From positions 1 to 32,147 of the IMG/VR virus record IMGVR_UViG_2537562172_000009: DNA of 32,147 bases; one strand, written 5' to 3'. Position numbers and translations under genes: made by a program. Shown here one piece after another: positions 4,514-21,441 of this stretch (position 1 is the stretch's first letter; each line of letters opens with the position of its first letter). The notes beneath the pieces are model-generated. The model did no database searches and was not told the DNA's origin. It was given only the letters and a program-made list of their open reading frames with translations. Source of the DNA: a virus (taxonomy: Duplodnaviria > Heunggongvirae > Uroviricota > Caudoviricetes).

Positions 4514-6736
4514 TTGGCTGTTCAATTCGCTTATCCGTGGAACGTCCCACGGTCGGCAATCTCCAGCCCATACCTTACTTATGAGCAACAGCATCGCCGC
4601 GACCGTATGTTCGCGGCTTTGCTGCATGCAAAAAAGGTGCTTTCTCTCCAGCCCGACTGCGTGCGGTTAGATGTTTATCGCACTGCTGCGGTGCTGGAGC
4701 AAAATCAGGGTAGTCAACGAGCCAATGCATTTTTAATCAGCTTCTGCAAAAAGGCATTGCCGCGTCTTGAACTGGTCGCAAAAAAATACGAATGCGCTGG
4801 TATCAACAGCAAGGTATCAACCGCTGTTTTTGGAAGTCATTTTGATACTCAGCAAATGCAATATCTGTCGTCACGCATGGTTAATATGGTCGCCCGATAT
4901 AACCGTCTCCCGGACATGTCGCGCGCTGATGTTGACCTGTTGGCCGCTGATATTGCTAATTTCATTCGTGGTGAACTTGCCAACATTAATGACCACGGAT
5001 TCGGCGAGCTTAAAACGCTGTACACCTGGTATATTCGTGCTGGCTTTATTTCCCTCCAATTCAACGTTATCCCACCACATTGGGAGCGGGTTGAAAAAAA
5101 ATATGTCGGTGCGGATGAAATCGCACCGGCTATCGCCAAAATGTTTAACGATGGGTGGTGGCGCGGTCGTTTGCGCCGTGTAGCAGCTACGTGGCGCGAA
5201 CACCTGCAAATTGCAGTCGGCAACGTCAGTAAGAAAAAAAACACTTACGCGAGTAAAAACTGCGTGACTGACTGGCGTGAACAAAAGCGCCGCACTCGTG
5301 AATTTCTCAAAGGTCTGGATCTCGAAGACGAAGACGGCAACCGTATCAGCCTAATTGAAAAATATGATGGCTCAGTTGCTAACCCTGCGATTCGCCGCTG
5401 TGAGCTCATGACCCGCATTCGTGGGTTTGAAAACATCTGTAATGAGCTCGGTTATGTCGGTGAGTTTTACACTCTAACCGCGCCGTCAAAATATCACGCC
5501 ACGACTAAAGCCGGTTACCGTAACAGCAAATGGAGCGGTGCCAGCCCGGCTGACACGCAAAACTATCTAACCGGTATCTGGGCGCGTATCCGTGCCAAAC
5601 TACATCGGGAAGATGTCCGTATTTTCGGTATTCGTGTCGCCGAGCCCCATCACGACGGCACTCCACACTGGCACATGCTGATGTTCATGCTGCCGGAAGA
5701 TGTTGAATATGTTCGCTCCATCGTCCGTAAATACGCATGGAAAGAAGACCGCCACGAACTGAAAAGCGATAAATCCAAAAAAGCACGTTTCCACGCGGAG
5801 TCCATTGACCCGGAGAAAGGCAGCGCAACCGGCTATGTTGCTAAATACATTTCAAAAAATATCGACGGTTATGCTCTCGATGGTGAAACCGATGATGAAA
5901 GCGGTGAGCTGCTGAAAGAGACAGCCCCCGCCGTTTCAGCATGGGCTGCGCGCTGGCACATCCGTCAGTTTCAGTTTATTGGTGGTGCGCCGGTGACGGT
6001 TTACCGTGAGTTGCGTCGCCTCGCTGATACCGAAACCGCGCACGGTCTGAGCGTTGAGTTTGCCGCCGTCCATGATGCCGCCGACGCTGGTGACTGGGCT
6101 GGTTATGTTAATGCTCAGGGTGGGCCGTTTGTCCGTCGCGATGATTTACAGGTGCGCACACTGTATGAACCGCGTACCGAGCTTAATCAGTACGGTGAGG
6201 AAACGGTATGTATTAAGGGGGTCTACGATTCCTCCATAGGTGCAGGAAGCCCGATTTTAACCCGGCTCACTCAGTGGAAGATTGTTCCGAAGCGTGCTGT
6301 TGATTTGGCCGTTGACCTTCAGGACGGCAAAGCCGTCCCTCGGAGTTCTGTCAATAACTGTACGGGAAGCGAAAACGAGCCACCGGAACTTGATTTATCA
6401 AAACCGCTGAGTCGACGTGAAAAGCGAGAGCTGACAAATCGACTCAGGAAGAAAAAACCAGCGACAAGGCAAAAATTCACACACGGAAGGGATGAACAAA
6501 ACGACTCTATAGAAAGAACCATCGACGAAATACACCTGACCACTGGCGTAACGATAAGCCGGGGTGAAGCCCTGCACCTAATGGCGGGTGGCAAATGCTG
6601 CTTTGAAGGGAAATGGCTTAGAGGAACAGCCAATGGTGAGCTATTTAGAGCCGCGCAGCCTTACTCCGCCAAAGCTAAGAATATCCTTAAGCGAGTTGCA
6701 AAACTGGCAGAAACGGCAAAATTACCACGTGATTAA
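4514..6736 (+). CDS. A: replication initiation endonuclease (P2 gpA / 186 RepA family, HUH rolling-circle initiator)
   Basis: 740 aa; HUH-type metal-binding motif GTPHWHMLMF and active-site tyrosine motif ATGYVAKYISKN; follows the small early ORFs as in P2. Start as given is a TTG (4514) one codon after the upstream stop, with a G-run SD; the next in-frame ATG is 31 codons downstream. Confidence 0.88.
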   Translation: MAVQFAYPWNVPRSAISSPYLTYEQQHRRDRMFAALLHAKKVLSLQPDCVRLDVYRTAAVLEQNQGSQRANAFLISFCKKALPRLELVAKKYECAGINSKVSTAVFGSHFDTQQMQYLSSRMVNMVARYNRLPDMSRADVDLLAADIANFIRGELANINDHGFGELKTLYTWYIRAGFISLQFNVIPPHWERVEKKYVGADEIAPAIAKMFNDGWWRGRLRRVAATWREHLQIAVGNVSKKKNTYASKNCVTDWREQKRRTREFLKGLDLEDEDGNRISLIEKYDGSVANPAIRRCELMTRIRGFENICNELGYVGEFYTLTAPSKYHATTKAGYRNSKWSGASPADTQNYLTGIWARIRAKLHREDVRIFGIRVAEPHHDGTPHWHMLMFMLPEDVEYVRSIVRKYAWKEDRHELKSDKSKKARFHAESIDPEKGSATGYVAKYISKNIDGYALDGETDDESGELLKETAPAVSAWAARWHIRQFQFIGGAPVTVYRELRRLADTETAHGLSVEFAAVHDAADAGDWAGYVNAQGGPFVRRDDLQVRTLYEPRTELNQYGEETVCIKGVYDSSIGAGSPILTRLTQWKIVPKRAVDLAVDLQDGKAVPRSSVNNCTGSENEPPELDLSKPLSRREKRELTNRLRKKKPATRQKFTHGRDEQNDSIERTIDEIHLTTGVTISRGEALHLMAGGKCCFEGKWLRGTANGELFRAAQPYSAKAKNILKRVAKLAETAKLPRD

Positions 6737-6850: not shown

Positions 6851-7033
6851 ATGGTTGGGGAGCATTTCAGCCGGGCGCAGCAAAAGTGGGCTTGTGTGCA
6901 ATTCATCGCCGAGGTATCTCTGATTGCAAACTGCAAACCATCAGACCTAAAGCTTGCTCTGACTCTCATTGCTGACTTAGCAAATAGTGAAAATAATGAA
7001 ACCGAAGAAGGCATGTTTTATGAGGCTGAGTAG
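6851..7033 (+). CDS. small acidic hypothetical protein
   Basis: 60-aa ORF; strong SD GGGAGGGA 5-8 nt before the ATG; acidic C-terminus (SENNETEEGMFYEAE); internal repeat FIAEVSLIAN / LTLIADLAN; stop overlaps a perfect palindrome. Confidence 0.4.
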   Translation: MVGEHFSRAQQKWACVQFIAEVSLIANCKPSDLKLALTLIADLANSENNETEEGMFYEAE

Positions 7034-7053: not shown

Positions 7054-7067
7054 TGAAAAAACAATCA

Positions 7068-7094
7068 AACCGGCACCATGATTGCCGGTTTTTT
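7068..7094 (+). terminator. rho-independent terminator ending the early/replication transcript
   Basis: AACCGGCA-CCATGAT-TGCCGGTT followed by TTTT(ATGTGT): GC-rich core stem, 7-nt loop, U-run. Confidence 0.65.
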
Positions 7095-7194
7095 ATGTGT
7101 TCTATCAAAAGGATGGGGTCTGACATTCTCATCATCAGAATTGTGTTATTTTAGTGCAACTCATTCGTCGTTAGACATTGTAAGGGCAATGTAT

Positions 7195-7905
7195 ATGAAA
7201 CCAAGCACACACTGCGTTTATTGTGGTGTTCTCATGAACAGGATTGAAAATCACCCCCACTGCCGCTCAGTTGAACACATGATCCCGCAAGTTTCAGTCT
7301 CCATTCATAGAACCAACGGCGAAGGCGATTTCCATGTATGCAAAAAGTGCAATGCCGATAAAAGCCGAATTGACGAGGTATTGGGTGTCATTTGCCGCAT
7401 GGTTGGTGAGCACTCAACAGGCAGTTTCGATGCTATCAATAAATTCAAAAATGCTCTTAAAAGAAATGATTCAAAATTCCGCGAGGCATTCCAAAGTGTT
7501 AAACATACAGGAAGAGGTGCGCAGATAACCTTACCCCTTGAAGGCAAAGAGATTTATCGATATGGCTCGTGGTTAGCAAAGGGCGTCTTTTTCTTAGAGT
7601 ATGAGCAGTTGTTGCCGCCAGATAAATTAATCTGGGTAAATATCGTTCGCCATGATGAAGTAATGGCTATTAGAGACATGTATAGAAATCAGCGTGGTTC
7701 TGAAGCTTTTGAGGACTTGTCCAAAAACAGCAATGTGCCAAACATTAACGGGGAATCTTTCCTGATTGTTGGCCGTGAAGCTAAGGAAATGTTCATATGT
7801 TTCAATCGCGTAATGATGTTCCATATAAAAATATTAGATAAGTCATTCATTAATCAAAAAAAATGCAAAAAATCACTACTTATGCTTGATAAGAGAATTC
7901 GATAA
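7195..7905 (+). CDS. HNH-motif nuclease-domain protein with uncharacterised C-terminal domain (accessory)
   Basis: 236 aa from the ATG at 7195 (SD TAAGGG 8 nt upstream; the ORF-track start at 7078 lies inside the terminator loop). N-terminus carries CxxC (CVYCG), EH (SVEHMIPQ) and H-x-CxxC-N (HVCKKCNADK), the HNH/zinc-finger nuclease arrangement. AT-rich. Confidence 0.65.
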   Translation: MKPSTHCVYCGVLMNRIENHPHCRSVEHMIPQVSVSIHRTNGEGDFHVCKKCNADKSRIDEVLGVICRMVGEHSTGSFDAINKFKNALKRNDSKFREAFQSVKHTGRGAQITLPLEGKEIYRYGSWLAKGVFFLEYEQLLPPDKLIWVNIVRHDEVMAIRDMYRNQRGSEAFEDLSKNSNVPNINGESFLIVGREAKEMFICFNRVMMFHIKILDKSFINQKKCKKSLLMLDKRIR

Positions 7906-8093
7906 AAATTTGAGATTAGGTAGATGCGGTTTGGCATTTGTCGCATGCGTTGAACTCACCACTCTTTCTGTGGGTATCTATTCGTTGGTAGCCGGTAGCC
8001 TTATGTAAAGCCACGCGGTTTGCTTTTAGTGGAATAGTTTTCATTGATTATTGTAAGATTGAGATCTTTATCTTAAAGAGGATTTTGCTACGT

Positions 8094-9701
8094 ATGTCTG
8101 CACAAAGCATATCAAGCCTTTTGAAGGCTAATAAATGGATCGATACGAATGTAGGTAAGTTTGAGTTTAAAAAAGAAATTGGTGAAGGGGGCAATAGCAA
8201 CGTGTTCCTTTTTTCTAATTCAGGGCATGATTTTGCAATAAAATTCTTAAAGCCAAGTAAAGATCATAGAAAAACAGATAGGTTTAAAGATGAGTTTTTT
8301 TGTGTATCTCAAATGCCATCCAACAAATACATTGTACAATACTACCACTTAGATAAAATAACAATCGATGATGTTGATTATTACATCATTATCATGAAGC
8401 CATACGCTCGGTCCTTAAAAAAAGATTTTGCCAGTACAAACTCTGCTGAAGAATATGAACGCGATGTGCGGAAATTATTTAATCATTTATTTAATGGGTT
8501 AAGACATATTCATAGCCATGGCGTTATTCATAGAGATCTTAAGCCTGAAAATATTTTTATTGACAGTGCTACCGACTCTTATGTAATCGGAGACTTTGGA
8601 ATATCAAGATTCGATGATGAGTTTTTTGCACGTTTGTCCCAGACCAGAGAAAGTGAACGATTGGCAAATTATAAATTTTCCGCACCAGAACAGTCATCGG
8701 GAAATCATGAGATCACTGTACGTAGCGATATTTACGCGCTCGGTCAGATTATGCAATATTTTAGTACTGGAGATGTGAGCAAGGGCAACGGAAGAGAAAA
8801 ATTATCCTATAGTAATGTTAGCGAGTTTATTGCCATTCTGGATGATATTATAGGGAAGTGTATCATGCACAACCCCAACGACAGATTCTCTTCTTTGGAT
8901 GATATGGCTGAATATTATAAATCGAAACTTGAATCTAATAAAAGATTAAAAGAGGCCCAGTTTAGGCAAAAAGAAGAGTCGGAAATGTGGGGTTTCCTTC
9001 ATGCATTTGATGACGCAATAGTAAGATCTGTCCCCCATATAAATAGAGTGGAAAAAATCACTTCGGATTTAGACATTGAATTATTTCTTTCAAGCATTGA
9101 TGGCACTATTAGCACAGAAAACACAAAAGATTCACTCTGGATGATTAAGTCGGATGGTGGGGATCTAAACTACTACGGGTCAAAATTAAAGCAAGGCAAA
9201 TACTTTGAGATAAACTTTGGTGGGTTCATCACTGAAGTGAATATAGATTCAATTGATGTATATTATGATAGCCACTATCATCATAAAAACTTCTTCATAA
9301 TCATCATCAGTGGCATGCCTCCTTTCGAATTTAACGACATATCGGACTTATCAAAGAAAAAGATGAGAAGTAAAATAACCTCAAAAGATGATTATTGTAT
9401 TGAGTGGAATGGGTATTGTTTAGATCCTAACGATGTAAGAAATAAATACGTAAAAATTGAAGGGACAACATATAGGGTTAGTCACGAGGATTTCAAGGAT
9501 GTACATCGCTGTATAAAAAGAGATGCATTCCTTGTTGTTCCAACCGGTACACCATCATCACATATGAATGATCGGTCTGTTGCAACGGACCTAATAAATG
9601 CGTGCTTAACGAACCCAAATGGACTAGTTACAACAGATGTAGACCTTTATTTGAGAAGAATCAGGGACCATTATCAGTCTTGGATTCGTAACAGCTTGTA
9701 G
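8094..9701 (+). CDS. Hanks-type Ser/Thr protein kinase fused to an about 250-aa domain of unknown function (accessory)
   Basis: 535 aa from the ATG at 8094 (SD AAAGAGGA upstream; the TTG at 8085 is too close to it). Gly-rich loop IGEGGNSNVF, beta3 Lys in FAIKFLK, catalytic loop HRDLKPEN, DFG (VIGDFGIS), APE (FSAPE), subdomain IX DIYALG. Very AT-rich. Confidence 0.8.
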   Translation: MSAQSISSLLKANKWIDTNVGKFEFKKEIGEGGNSNVFLFSNSGHDFAIKFLKPSKDHRKTDRFKDEFFCVSQMPSNKYIVQYYHLDKITIDDVDYYIIIMKPYARSLKKDFASTNSAEEYERDVRKLFNHLFNGLRHIHSHGVIHRDLKPENIFIDSATDSYVIGDFGISRFDDEFFARLSQTRESERLANYKFSAPEQSSGNHEITVRSDIYALGQIMQYFSTGDVSKGNGREKLSYSNVSEFIAILDDIIGKCIMHNPNDRFSSLDDMAEYYKSKLESNKRLKEAQFRQKEESEMWGFLHAFDDAIVRSVPHINRVEKITSDLDIELFLSSIDGTISTENTKDSLWMIKSDGGDLNYYGSKLKQGKYFEINFGGFITEVNIDSIDVYYDSHYHHKNFFIIIISGMPPFEFNDISDLSKKKMRSKITSKDDYCIEWNGYCLDPNDVRNKYVKIEGTTYRVSHEDFKDVHRCIKRDAFLVVPTGTPSSHMNDRSVATDLINACLTNPNGLVTTDVDLYLRRIRDHYQSWIRNSL

Positions 9702-9920
9702 CCCGATGAGCAAAGTTAAGAATCAGCCAATCAATCCGGCAGCGTGAATGTTGGTTTTTTATGCCATTTTTCCGCCATTTCTCCATTTTCTAGCCATGCA
9801 TGCATCTGGTGCATGGTTTTGCATGCGTCAGTGCTGCCCGTTCCGTACGTGCGCCGCCAGAGCTGGCGCGGCTTCGGAGTGGTCATGCAATTGCATTAAA
9901 ACCGACCCATAAAGCGGGCA

Positions 9921-9939
9921 GGCGTGGCGGGGAAAGCAT
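9921..9939. other. cos site (cohesive-end sequence of P2/186 type)
   Basis: GGCGTGGCGGGGAAAGCAT followed by TGCGCGC, matching the 19-nt cohesive ends of 186 (and differing at 2 positions from P2's) as I remember them; located between the replication/accessory side and the portal gene, where cos lies in a P2 prophage. Confidence 0.6.
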
Positions 9940-10048
9940 TGCGCGCAGCACACACTTGCAATTTGATATTTTTGGTGTAAAAAATCGGTGTCAATGAGTA
10001 GAAGATGAAAAAATAATAACCAAAGGTTACTAAATCAAGGATGTGCCG

Positions 10049-10867
10049 ATGAAAGTTAGCTATGACGTTGTCATCAAAAGTGGTGATCAAGAAGTTGATA
10101 TGGAGTATGGCCTTGATACCCTCTCTGGAACGGCTGAGGTGACATGCATACTAGCAGAGGCAATACTCAGAAAAAAAATTATTAAGCGCCGCACTCATGT
10201 TAACCCTGCGCGAGCGGTTCTCAAACAAAGCTTTAAAAGTTCTTATGGTCAAAACTTCGACTTGATTGTTAATGAGCCGGAATTAGCTGCCGAATTAAAA
10301 AAAATGACCCGTTCTGTGTTCTCGGAAGTCATGGGGTATTTTATTTCTGAATCTCTATATCTGGAAACTAAGGAGCTATCTCCAAAAGCTGCAGGAATTA
10401 TTGAGGAGCTTGAGGAAATTGAAGATGAACTTATTGATCGTATCAGACAACCTTTGGTAAGGATGCATAGGATAAATCTTCAAAAAAACTTTGATGTTGA
10501 ACTTAACTATAAAAAACCTGCTGGCAAACAAAGAATAGCAAAGTTAGACACAATGACTGCTACAAACTTGACACAATCAAAAATAATGCCCGGTCAAGTT
10601 AATATTAACGCAGTTATTACTCGATTTAATGCGAGAACTGGAAATGGTAGGTTAGTTATCGAAGGTGAAGATGATACAGTAGCCTTTGGTTTTTACATGC
10701 CTTTAAAGGCTATACCCGCCGCTCAAAAAAGATTGGTCTCATTAAATTTACACAATAATAATGGCAGGCAAGATAACTACACATATCTAAAACTTACTGT
10801 TAGTAAAGTTGTAGTAAAAAGTGGTGATGTGGTGAAATATCTAATCCGTATGGTTGAAACTGTATGA
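10049..10867 (+). CDS. hypothetical soluble protein, first gene of a coupled two-gene accessory cassette
   Basis: 272 aa from the ATG at 10049 (AAGGA 7 nt upstream); AT-rich; near-identical short motif close to both termini (YDVVIKSGDQEV and KVVVKSGDVVKY); stop overlaps the next start (ATGA). Confidence 0.6.
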   Translation: MKVSYDVVIKSGDQEVDMEYGLDTLSGTAEVTCILAEAILRKKIIKRRTHVNPARAVLKQSFKSSYGQNFDLIVNEPELAAELKKMTRSVFSEVMGYFISESLYLETKELSPKAAGIIEELEEIEDELIDRIRQPLVRMHRINLQKNFDVELNYKKPAGKQRIAKLDTMTATNLTQSKIMPGQVNINAVITRFNARTGNGRLVIEGEDDTVAFGFYMPLKAIPAAQKRLVSLNLHNNNGRQDNYTYLKLTVSKVVVKSGDVVKYLIRMVETV

Positions 10868-11589
10868 GAAAGGTGTTGCTGTCTTCGGCTGGCGTGATTG
10901 TAGCTGTGTGCGCCTTGTATTACTTCAACTTCGGAGTAAACGGACATTTATCCAGCAAGACTGATGTTTGGGCGCAGTTTGGTGATTATTTGGGTGGTGT
11001 CGTCAACCCTATACTTTCATTTATTACAATTTACCTCCTTATAAATTCAATAAAACTTCAAAGGGAGGCTAATTCCAGCCTGATCGATGAAGTAAAAAGG
11101 CAAGAATCTTTAGAAGAGTATAAAAAATTTGAAGTGAGATTTTTCCATTTGGTTGAATGTCAGGATTCTAACTTTGAAAGGTTTTGTGTTCAAGTTGGTG
11201 ATGTTGATGGACAAACTGACGGGGTGGTCGAAGAATTTACAAGTGGTGCAGCCGTAACTTATCTTGAAGATAATATTGTAATTTTAGTTAAAGCCAAGGT
11301 GAAAAAAGAGGTAATAACAAAGTGGTTAAGTGAAGTGGATGCTAATGATTGCATTTTTTCAGTGGTGCGTCGCTTTTATTTGATTGTGAAGTTGATAGAT
11401 AATTGCGGGGTTGAACGGGAAGATTATTATGAAACATTAGTTAACTTAACTGACATAAAAATAATATCTTTAGTTGCAATGGCTTGTACATACTACGAGT
11501 GGGATATCGTAAAGTATATCCATGACAGTAAAATACTTGAACGAGATGGAGTTAAAGAGTTTGTTTCGCAAATATCCACTCACGATTGA
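10864..11589 (+). CDS. hypothetical membrane protein (2 predicted N-terminal TM helices), second gene of the cassette
   Basis: 241 aa; hydrophobic segments LLSSAGVIVAVCALYYF and GDYLGGVVNPILSFITIYLLINSI followed by a charged soluble domain; ATGA overlap with the upstream gene. Confidence 0.6.
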   Translation: MRKVLLSSAGVIVAVCALYYFNFGVNGHLSSKTDVWAQFGDYLGGVVNPILSFITIYLLINSIKLQREANSSLIDEVKRQESLEEYKKFEVRFFHLVECQDSNFERFCVQVGDVDGQTDGVVEEFTSGAAVTYLEDNIVILVKAKVKKEVITKWLSEVDANDCIFSVVRRFYLIVKLIDNCGVEREDYYETLVNLTDIKIISLVAMACTYYEWDIVKYIHDSKILERDGVKEFVSQISTHD

Positions 11590-11619: not shown

Positions 11620-12666
11620 TTATTCCGGGTTATCGAGGGTGTACTCTTTGAACCTGATGACCTCCATGCCGAGCCAGTCGTTTACCTCCCTGAACCTGTC
11701 CTGTAGCGGCGACAGCTCATTGCGCACAAATACCTTTGCCACCTTCTCAACGTCACCGAGTGAACCGATATTCTCGGGCTTGCCGCCCATGAGCTGGAAC
11801 GGCACGCGGTGCGCGTCCATCAGGTCGGCGGCGCTGGCTTTCTTAATGTTGAAAAAGTCATCCTTTGTGGCGACCTCGCTCAGTGGCACGATTTTGATGC
11901 CGTCCGGTTTTCCGCCGGGGGCGTAGAAAAACAGGTTCTTAAAGTTGCCGAGTCCCTTCGAGTTACGCATCGCCTCGCGCAGCGATTCGACGTCGGTCGC
12001 ACTTTGCGCCGGGTCAGTCACATACATGATGTAGCCTGCGTGCGCGCCGTTCTGATAATACTTGCGGCGGAACAGCGTCGCGGATTCATTCAGCCAAGCG
12101 GAATTAAGCGCGCTGAGATATTCCGGCAAACCGTAAATCTCCTGATTAATGTCGGGCTCCAGCAGGTGAAACACGGTATCAGGCGCGAACTCGTGCGGCT
12201 GGGTGAAGTTTTCCACAAACCAGAAAATCGAATCGTCGACTCCGCGTCGGGTGTATTTGGCTGGCGAGGCCAGCAGTTTGATTAACTGGCCGGTGACGCT
12301 GTGGCGCTGCTCAAGAAAGGCGTTACCGAACACCAGATAATCGAGCGCAAAGCGGCTGAAATCCTGACGGGATAACAACGGGTGCGGAATGTAGGTGCTC
12401 GCGAGCACGTTACGCTTAACATAAATTGGCGAGCTGTGATGCACGGCAGAGCGCAGGCTCTTTGCCAGCCCTGAGAAGCTGACCGGCGGCTCGTACCATT
12501 TGCCGTTACTGATGCATTCGACGTAATCCAGAATGTCGCGCTTATCGAGTACCGGCACCGGCTCGCCGAAGGTGAACGCTGTCGTTTTTGGCGGTGCGCT
12601 GGCGGTCAGTTGTTGTGGTTTGCTGGCCTTTTGTGCGTTGGCTTTACGGGATTTTTGTTTACCCAT
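11620..12666 (-). CDS. Q: portal protein
   Basis: 348 aa; minus strand; immediately downstream of the large terminase gene and next to cos; size and position match P2 gpQ. Confidence 0.85.
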   Translation of the reverse strand: MGKQKSRKANAQKASKPQQLTASAPPKTTAFTFGEPVPVLDKRDILDYVECISNGKWYEPPVSFSGLAKSLRSAVHHSSPIYVKRNVLASTYIPHPLLSRQDFSRFALDYLVFGNAFLEQRHSVTGQLIKLLASPAKYTRRGVDDSIFWFVENFTQPHEFAPDTVFHLLEPDINQEIYGLPEYLSALNSAWLNESATLFRRKYYQNGAHAGYIMYVTDPAQSATDVESLREAMRNSKGLGNFKNLFFYAPGGKPDGIKIVPLSEVATKDDFFNIKKASAADLMDAHRVPFQLMGGKPENIGSLGDVEKVAKVFVRNELSPLQDRFREVNDWLGMEVIRFKEYTLDNPE

Positions 12667-20397: not shown

Positions 20398-21441
20398 ATG
20401 GGTGGTGCATATTTATTCGATATCATAAAGGACATGCTGCCAGTTTTATCAGGCCTACTAGGAGTGTTGGGTATTCTCAATGTGTTTAAAACTTCGAATA
20501 ATCGCCTTAGCTTTTGGGGATGGCTGGCTGTTTTTGTAATTGTGATCTCCACGATTGCAACACTGCTATTAGCGAAAAAGGAAAAAAATGATAATGAGCG
20601 GGAAAAGATACAACTCCAAAACAAAATAGATAACATATTAAGAGACGTAGCCAAGGCTCGTGAGCCAATTGGGGAGGTTTCCATAACCTATTGGTCGCTG
20701 CTTCCTGATTCGAATCAACTGGTTCGAAAATACAAAGACTATCTTAATGAAAAAGCAAGAGGTGAGGTCGAAAATTTTTCATTCCATAACCTAACGAAGA
20801 CTAATAAAGATTATTTCGGGACTACAATCGATTTGGATGGGAAGCTCGCCGTTTTTAGCATTGATGAAAAAAACAAGTATTGGCCCTCGGGTTCTTTCTC
20901 TGAAATCGGTCTTTTGGCCTCAAATTTTTCAATAATGCTCTGTATCAATTCCAAACACACTAATGCTAAGGATGTGCGTTTTATCATAGGGGCAAGGAAC
21001 AACTTAGATTGGTGTGCTCTTGCCTTGCTGCCAAGAACAAGTGATATCTTTTATGACGTCAAAAAAGATAAAATTGGATTGGCAACAACCATTACATATG
21101 ACAAAAAATGGGTGTATTCCAATGGCGTTATTTCCTCGGTTAGAGATTTCTTCGGTTCGGATGTCTTTTTTGTTCTTCCCTCTACAGATTCTCGATTTTT
21201 GAATGACTATCTAAAGTCCATAGGAGCACCTCAGACGCTTATAGAGTCAAATAAAATAAAGTCCGAGATCATTGCTGGTATGAGCACAGAGTCAGTGAGC
21301 GTCAAAATGGGGGATGGCCAACGTTTTAATATCTCAGGAGAACATCTAAAAAAATATAACTCGAAAGATGGCAGAACTTTTTTCTATATCAAAATGCCTT
21401 TGTCAGAAAAAGAAGTTAGTGAGCTCGAGACAAAAAATTAG
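20398..21441 (+). CDS. hypothetical membrane-anchored protein (2 TM + coiled coil + about 250-aa domain), moron in the S-V slot
   Basis: 347 aa; AT-rich; hydrophobic segments LPVLSGLLGVLGILNVF and WLAVFVIVISTIATLLLA, then a Lys/Glu/Asn-rich stretch; sits where P2 carries orf30 (my recollection). Confidence 0.6.
   Translation: MGGAYLFDIIKDMLPVLSGLLGVLGILNVFKTSNNRLSFWGWLAVFVIVISTIATLLLAKKEKNDNEREKIQLQNKIDNILRDVAKAREPIGEVSITYWSLLPDSNQLVRKYKDYLNEKARGEVENFSFHNLTKTNKDYFGTTIDLDGKLAVFSIDEKNKYWPSGSFSEIGLLASNFSIMLCINSKHTNAKDVRFIIGARNNLDWCALALLPRTSDIFYDVKKDKIGLATTITYDKKWVYSNGVISSVRDFFGSDVFFVLPSTDSRFLNDYLKSIGAPQTLIESNKIKSEIIAGMSTESVSVKMGDGQRFNISGEHLKKYNSKDGRTFFYIKMPLSEKEVSELETKN

Follow-up and report, generated by a model that had tools for sequence, protein, structure and literature searches.

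What is a gene with an HNH motif doing between the replication gene A and the cohesive-end site (cos) of a P2-like prophage? The question arises for positions 1 to 32,147 of IMG/VR virus record IMGVR_UViG_2537562172_000009, a stretch that we analysed at its full length of 32,147 nucleotides and refer to as the window. The window represents an E. coli prophage of the P2-like type (Peduoviridae); between 6700 and 11700, E. coli O141:H4 P13-6 and ETEC1716 share its sequence with 100% identity. The gene in question, hereafter the HNH gene, lies on the + strand at 7195-7905 (ATG at 7195, stop codon at 7903-7905) and encodes a protein of 236 residues. We propose, with a probability of roughly 0.55, that it encodes a single-gene anti-phage (superinfection-exclusion) nuclease, the C-terminal domain of which would provide recognition or control. 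The family to which the protein belongs is uncharacterised: it matches phrog_31193, of unknown function, over its full length (E=1.5e-151), with the 236 positions of that profile matched end to end. The exact protein occurs on 141 public contigs and is named "HNH endonuclease 5 domain-containing protein" in UniRef; the HNH domain itself is ordinary and was already flagged there.

The HNH (His-Me finger, beta-beta-alpha-metal) domain occupies residues 1-60 (7195-7374, + strand, as are all features of the gene given below). The motifs that the original prediction had read in the N-terminus are all present, namely C7-x2-C10, V26-E27-H28-M-I-P and C49-x2-C52-N53-x2-K56. The predicted zinc ligands are C7 (7213-7215), C10 (7222-7224), C49 (7339-7341) and C52 (7348-7350), and the predicted catalytic residues are E27-H28 (7273-7278) and N53 (7351-7353). 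Homologues were collected both by a word-indexed search, which yielded 29 clusters, and by an exhaustive profile search, which yielded 94 representatives at 50% identity. In an alignment of 40 sequences, reaching down to 14% identity, C7, C10, H28, C52, N53 and K56 (7360-7362) are invariant, and Y9, E27, P31, C49, D60 and G130 are conserved in at least 90% of the sequences. When the family profile was compared with the PDB, it matched 4h9d (GmeHNH) with E=2.4e-5 and 4ogc, the HNH domain of A. naeslundii Cas9, with E=0.003; this result required the deeper of two alignments (A2), as the shallow one (A1) gave spurious kinase matches only. The Pfam family HNH_5 was matched by 20 of the 40 relatives (best E=1e-6) and the family HNH by seven, and the PtuB models of PADLOC match residues 6-65 (E=1.4e-4). 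At the family level, the search against HNH families that had been proposed as a check found HNH_5, whereas the single protein from the window has no Pfam or NCBIfam match at E<=1. The AlphaFold2 (AF2) model places strands within the HNH region at 26-27 and 46-47, followed by a helix at 50-70. The invariant residues, taken with the 4h9d, HNH_5 and PtuB matches, identify the protein as a predicted HNN-type HNH nuclease in which all of the catalytic and zinc-binding residues are intact, and the assignment appears robust at the level of the family.

The automatic annotation gives a different picture. The RefSeq/PGAP entry WP_236496082.1 has 223 residues and starts at 7234, 13 codons after the ATG at 7195. 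C7 and C10, which make up the first CxxC pair, are lost with this start; half of the zinc site is thereby removed, and the annotation hides the HNH domain. We conclude that the RefSeq start is too late. The ATG at 7195 is preceded, 8 nucleotides upstream, by a Shine-Dalgarno-like AAGGG (7182-7186); a purine-rich site is found at the same spacing in eight divergent homologous loci aligned at this ATG, and CxYC is conserved in all full-length relatives. We discarded a longer reading frame, from 7078 (275 residues), because it shares sequence with the terminator and because the other E. coli allele has an indel that disrupts it.

The remaining residues, 61-236 (7375-7902), form a family-specific alpha/beta domain. 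The original prediction had left this part unassigned, and it stays so: the ~175 C-terminal residues match no Pfam, NCBIfam or PADLOC model. The AF2 model built on the family alignment has a mean predicted local distance difference test score (pLDDT) of 85 and a predicted template modelling score of 0.85, and the block-mean pLDDT for residues 61-236 ranges from 79 to 97, mostly above 85. Helices are predicted at 74-89, 93-100, 117-136, 153-167, 171-177 and 218-235, and strands at 103-105, 108-110, 144-151, 188-192, 198-203 and 207-215. A Foldseek search of the domain against the PDB and BFVD returned nothing below E=0.02, with weak TBP-like matches, so that the structure prediction suggested as a check delivered a confident alpha/beta fold with no recognisable fold relative in these two libraries. 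Compared with a second E. coli allele, 85% identical and described below, the gene as a whole has a ratio of nonsynonymous to synonymous substitution rates (dN/dS) of 0.09, and codons 61-236 have one of 0.07; both halves of the protein are thus, judging from this ratio, under purifying selection. Given the confident model, the purifying selection and the null fold searches, we conclude that the C-terminal domain is real, conserved and without recognisable relatives in the libraries searched.

Nucleotide identity to the second allele is not uniform along the gene. It is 92-97% for 7120-7419 and 75-83% for 7420-7905, and the synonymous divergence is 0.12 for codons 1-60 and 1.30 for the rest. 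This drop inside the gene indicates either a recombination breakpoint or a nucleotide-level constraint on the leader and the 5' part. The leader comprises ~100 nucleotides (7098-7194) and is 92-97% conserved between the E. coli alleles from 7120 onward. The gene had been described as AT-rich, in agreement with its GC content of 39.9%, against 51.3% for the window. It also contains an A8 homopolymer (7856-7863), of which an A7 variant that shifts the frame is present in public E. coli records (P0002, a cluster representative of 257 residues, on five contigs). The frameshift replaces the last 16 residues with a tail of 49 residues, and the A7 version may stem from a sequencing error or represent natural on/off variation.

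If the protein is a nuclease, then the question is whether its gene acts alone. In the window, the HNH gene is followed by a Ser/Thr kinase gene (8085-9701, + strand), which encodes 538 residues and matches PADLOC PD-T4-6 (E=9e-36) and Pfam Pkinase (E=4e-30), with ~240 C-terminal residues unassigned, and then by cos at 9921-9939. The cos site reads GGCGTGGCGGGGAAAGCAT, two positions of which differ from the cohesive end of P2, and the sequences on either side of it match P2 cosR. The HNH gene was found in seven of 5,426 complete E. coli genomes, and the sequences that flank it were found in at least 169. Three of the seven have the HNH-kinase arrangement of the window, and in one strain, LR-21-1, the kinase gene is interrupted by an IS3-family element; in the other four, the 85%-identical allele stands without a kinase. 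The two alleles are homologous from the terminator hairpin at 7066 to the stop codon at 7905 and then again only from the cos region onward, and the flanks differ between them. In E. coli 97.3, the flanks are those of the kinase-less allele (Ecol_545) and the HNH gene is absent, which leaves an empty site at ~1240-1460 of L039. P2-like phages of the Klebsiella, Kosakonia and Lelliottia types, as well as metagenomic ones, encode the HNH protein with 56-86% identity; the gene is always located in the interval between A and the portal gene and is never beside a kinase gene. Loci with the HNH gene and no kinase are L003, L004, L011-L018 and L022. Conversely, kinase homologues with 80-82% identity stand alone as the last gene before cos at two loci, L031 and L032. 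An all-against-all BLASTP comparison of the neighbours, supplemented by phmmer, identified no conserved neighbour in 17 loci, and none is conserved across ~20 contexts that include prophages, integrative and conjugative elements (ICEs), plasmids and islands. The idea of a stand-alone unit is therefore well founded: the HNH gene lacks the kinase in more than 10 P2-like phages, has an empty counterpart in 97.3 and has no conserved partner. The pairing with the downstream kinase that the original prediction had implied does not survive the same comparison, and we rejected the kinase as an obligate partner because each gene occurs independently.

The gene upstream of the HNH gene varies with the locus and may be DinI, a gene for a 243-residue protein, DUF6680, SIR2 or orf60. 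Some upstream genes recur: DUF6680 in two unrelated contexts, RNase_T in two Idiomarinaceae loci, HEPN_AbiU2 once, and an unannotated protein of 243-253 residues in four Klebsiella-type P2-like phages. Examples of genes directly upstream of family members are those at 7306-7959 of L015, 6232-6888 of L033, 6404-6955 of L035 and 5145-5906 of L003. These recurring genes are limited to particular lineages and none is universal, and they are possibly lineage-specific partners.

The edges of the cassette coincide with hairpins. The left edge is a terminator-type hairpin with a T-run at 7066-7097 (+ strand), detected by a terminator scan; homology between the alleles starts at this hairpin despite different upstream genes, and four copies of it, including that at the empty site, could be aligned. 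It is duplicated in the window, with one copy before the HNH gene and a second (9732-9763) after the kinase gene. The right edge, located by aligning the window with the Ecol_545 allele and with the empty site of 97.3, is a remnant (…GCATGCGTTGA) of a second landing-pad hairpin at 7934-7952 (+ strand). This second hairpin is GCATGC-rich and is intact at ~9795-9830, just before cos, with the remnant lying at ~7940-7950 after the HNH stop codon. The HNH cassette thus sits between two conserved backbone hairpins, and cargo cassettes appear to be stacked between repeated hairpin copies beside cos. The locus is a clean example of P2 cargo stacking between repeated terminator hairpins next to cos. 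With regard to the terminator, the HNH gene had been said to follow a clear one directly after the replication gene. The hairpin (7067-7091) and its T-run are present, but the terminator follows a small open reading frame, orf60, and not gene A directly.

Several features of the locus and of the family point to a role in defence. The HNH gene lies within the interval that corresponds to gpA-gpQ of P2, an experimentally validated reservoir of defence systems (PMC9122126, PMC9519451), and its placement in a recognised prophage defence hotspot by the original prediction was therefore correct. The HNH family is unmentioned in these two papers on the P2 hotspot. The ~94 representatives at 50% identity are distributed over prophages, ICEs and plasmids of Proteobacteria. 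Relatives at 17-35% identity have the same length and the same two-domain layout, reside on several kinds of mobile element, and are all annotated as hypothetical. In Vibrio, Aliidiomarina and Pseudidiomarina, family members lie on chromosomal islands beside a Type III restriction-modification methylase, Schlafen/AlbA-ATPase, GmrSD, NERD and transposases; alphaproteobacterial ICE-like elements carry one together with Mrr_cat; in Neorhizobium, a member is located beside AbiEii and recombinases; and in a conjugative element, one directly follows an HEPN_AbiU2 gene. Family members are also carried by Shewanella plasmids, in one case close to Dsr1. One Kosakonia P2-like phage carries PDC-S25 (SIR2), a candidate system, as companion cargo, and in the window, the neighbour is the PD-T4-6-like kinase. 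Such a neighbourhood of mobile elements and defence genes is the usual signature of a defence-island gene, and it is from this context that we infer the anti-phage role.

How might such a protein act? The N-terminal 60 residues would cut or nick DNA, with H28 as the general base, E27 and N53 holding the catalytic metal, and the four cysteines holding a structural zinc ion. The C-terminal alpha/beta domain may then decide when or what to cut. One possibility is that it recognises a feature of foreign DNA, as would a Type IV-like, methyltransferase-independent restriction enzyme; no methyltransferase partner was found in any P2-like locus, and a Type IV-like enzyme is therefore the precedent to consider (compare the prophage-borne McrA). 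Alternatively, the domain might keep the nuclease inactive until a cue of infection is received, in the manner of abortive infection.

Several observations weigh against a defence function. About half of the ~20 contexts have no recognisable defence gene nearby. The family is absent from PADLOC, where its sole match is the weak one to PtuB, confined to the HNH segment. GmeHNH, the closest solved relative, only nicks DNA weakly and non-specifically (PMC3765158). A promoter scan identified no consensus sigma-70 promoter on the + strand between 7091 and 7195; with no such promoter detected between the terminator and the start codon, the HNH gene may be read only by read-through in lytic growth. 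Furthermore, the distance from the end of the HNH gene to cos is 126-165 bp at 10 of the 11 other P2-like loci, and this cos-proximal position, together with the clean presence/absence polymorphism, fits a selfish element equally well.

The last point leads to the main rival explanation, in which the gene encodes a selfish, free-standing HNH endonuclease of the homing type that belongs to P2-like phages. In related genomes without the HNH gene, such an enzyme would cleave the cos-proximal landing pad, or a sequence near it, and recombinational repair would then copy the gene in. An N-terminal HNH domain followed by a C-terminal extension, possibly DNA-binding, is the typical layout of HNH homing enzymes and thus also counts against the defence reading. 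The sporadic occurrence among E. coli genomes (seven of 5,426, when 169 have the flanking sequences), the clean empty site of 97.3 between two conserved hairpins, the near-constant distance to cos and the mosaic identity, which indicates recombination through the HNH gene, are all in keeping with homing. However, neither a NUMOD, IENR, AP2 or helix-turn-helix module nor a match to a homing family was detected, and the matches to HNH families of PHROG had E>=0.05. There is no intron or intein, and close identity to a known intron- or intein-associated homing endonuclease, which the original prediction had named as a refutation of its reading, was not found. In addition, the upstream flank differs among loci, and the relatives at 17-35% identity have the same layout at unrelated sites on plasmids, ICEs and islands, beside defence genes. 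All cargo in the hotspot, including the unrelated kinase, swaps as cassettes in the same way. The homing-type alternative is weakened by these observations, and we regard it as unlikely.

One could envision a hybrid of homing and exclusion, in which the HNH gene is a cos-linked inter-phage weapon that acts at the packaging site. The C-terminal domain, in this scenario a DNA-recognition domain of new fold, would recognise the cos-proximal landing pad of P2-like rivals or P4 satellites that lack the cassette; this pad would be the segment between the two hairpins, ~130-190 bp before the cohesive end. A cut at that position would keep the competitor out and, through repair, also propagate the gene. 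We consider this scenario improbable.

Still less probable, in our view, is an accessory nuclease of the lytic cycle, whether a packaging helper of the HK97 gp74 type that assists terminase at cos or a degrader of host or competitor DNA. HNH proteins encoded next to terminase genes are known packaging components (PMC5304195). The HNH gene lies directly beside cos and the portal/terminase module in most of its P2-like relatives, and it is co-oriented with the early replication operon, with no promoter of its own detected. It is absent, however, from P2 and from the vast majority of P2-like prophages, so it is no core packaging factor, and a terminator precedes it. Proteins of the gp74 type typically have a single domain and ~100-130 residues; the protein from the window has in addition a conserved domain of 175 residues. 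Moreover, family members are found on plasmids, ICEs and non-phage islands. Finally, the proposal that the HNH gene and the downstream Ser/Thr kinase gene form a two-gene nuclease-kinase system similar to Bandua hardly deserves credence. In its favour, the genes are neighbours that point in the same direction, the 180 bp that separate them contain no predicted terminator, the kinase allele always accompanies the HNH gene in complete E. coli genomes (3/3), and a nuclease and kinase pair gives defence in P4 satellites (bioRxiv 10.64898/2026.02.27.708500). Against it, no kinase accompanies the HNH gene at more than 10 P2-like loci or in any of the distant contexts, the homology to the E. coli allele without a kinase stops at the HNH stop codon, the kinase homologues with 80-82% identity stand alone before cos, the kinase matches PD-T4-6, a single-gene system, and the Bandua nuclease is a PD-(D/E)xK NERD protein rather than an HNH protein.

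We therefore return to the single-gene anti-phage nuclease. Unknown cargo is common in the P2 hotspot, and a nuclease effector is to be expected there. If the HNH gene is protective, it would add a compact one-gene nuclease system (236 residues) to the repertoire of the hotspot, together with a new sensor or recognition domain, the C-terminal fold having no detectable relative in the PDB or BFVD. The HNH gene can reasonably be put forward as a compact and easily testable candidate for a new one-gene phage-defence protein.

The surroundings of the HNH gene complete the description of the locus. Gene A, which encodes the replication endonuclease, is at 4514-6736, and orf60 (6851-7033, + strand), a small open reading frame of 60 residues that belongs to phrog_1993, follows it; orf60 is kept across many E. 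coli P2-like prophages. Beyond cos lie two overlapping genes on the + strand (10043-10867 and 10864-11589) and, on the minus strand, the portal gene (11620-12666). The overlapping genes encode 274 and 241 residues, have a GC content of ~37%, and belong to phrog_13337 and phrog_8999, respectively, both of unknown function; they have weak matches only, to DUF7946/DUF7947 and to a ZorB-like N-terminus. At least 11 other E. coli genomes, lacking both the HNH gene and the kinase, contain this pair at 97-99% identity. It looks like a separate two-gene cargo candidate located across cos. The HNH gene, the kinase gene and the 274/241-residue pair each occur separately, and the window therefore carries a stack of three cargo units that are independent of one another. 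A second AT-rich island (GC ~38%) contains an open reading frame of 347 residues (20398-21441, + strand) with a hydrophobic N-terminus, placed among tail/baseplate genes just upstream of a gpV-like spike gene; it is probably another cargo gene, in a second variable locus. An Rfam scan of the window gave no match.

How does the HNH protein compare with systems that are already known? The P2 counterpart of the locus contains, between A and cos, orf91 (109 residues), tin (253 residues) and old (586 residues), and the original prediction had regarded the HNH gene as the positional equivalent of tin. The hotspot is indeed the same, and the sizes of Tin and Old are comparable with the 236 and 538 residues encoded in the window. 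The genes for Tin and Old, however, run in the other direction and are transcribed from a promoter of their own next to cos, and Old is an ATPase-TOPRIM nuclease and not a kinase. We rejected homology to Tin (BLASTP E=1.0, hhalign probability 0.3%), and orf60 has no similarity to P2 orf91 despite the shared position. Because of the opposite strand and the lack of similarity in both comparisons, the analogy with P2 is positional only. Bandua of P4 satellites likewise resembles the window in having a nuclease gene beside a Ser/Thr kinase gene in the P2/P4 hotspot; it differs in that its NERD nuclease belongs to another superfamily, and here the HNH and kinase genes are separate cassettes.

Among structurally defined proteins, GmeHNH (Gmet_0936, PDB 4H9D), an HNH_5/group 1 His-Me finger protein, shares the CxxC…[D/E]H…CxxC-N layout. 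Its zinc ligands are C38, C41, C73 and C76, and its active site consists of D53, H54 and N77 (PMC3765158). C7, C10, C49 and C52 of the protein from the window correspond to these four cysteines in that order, E27-H28 to D53-H54, and N53 to N77. GmeHNH, however, is a single-domain protein of 112 residues with a proposed role in repair, whereas in the window the 60-residue HNH domain is part of a protein of 236 residues. PtuB of Septu, the sole defence-model match, is likewise of the HNH_5 type, of similar size and found in a defence context. The match covers only the 58 residues of the HNH core, however, and this core is central in PtuB (profile positions 51-108 of 224) but N-terminal in the window protein; neither in the window nor at the P2-like loci does the HNH gene have a PtuA-type ABC ATPase gene as its neighbour. 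With regard to EcoKMcrA and other Type IV HNH enzymes, the HNH domain of McrA is C-terminal, so that the order of domains is reversed relative to the window protein, and for the non-HNH domain neither similarity to these enzymes nor a match to a known fold of a modified-DNA reader was detected. Free-standing HNH homing endonucleases, such as I-HmuI and T4 Mob, share with the window protein an N-terminal HNH domain with a C-terminal extension, a sporadic distribution, and presence or absence at a fixed phage locus. The window protein differs from them in having no homing DNA-binding modules, no matches to their families and no intron or intein, and its family is also found in non-phage defence islands and on plasmids.

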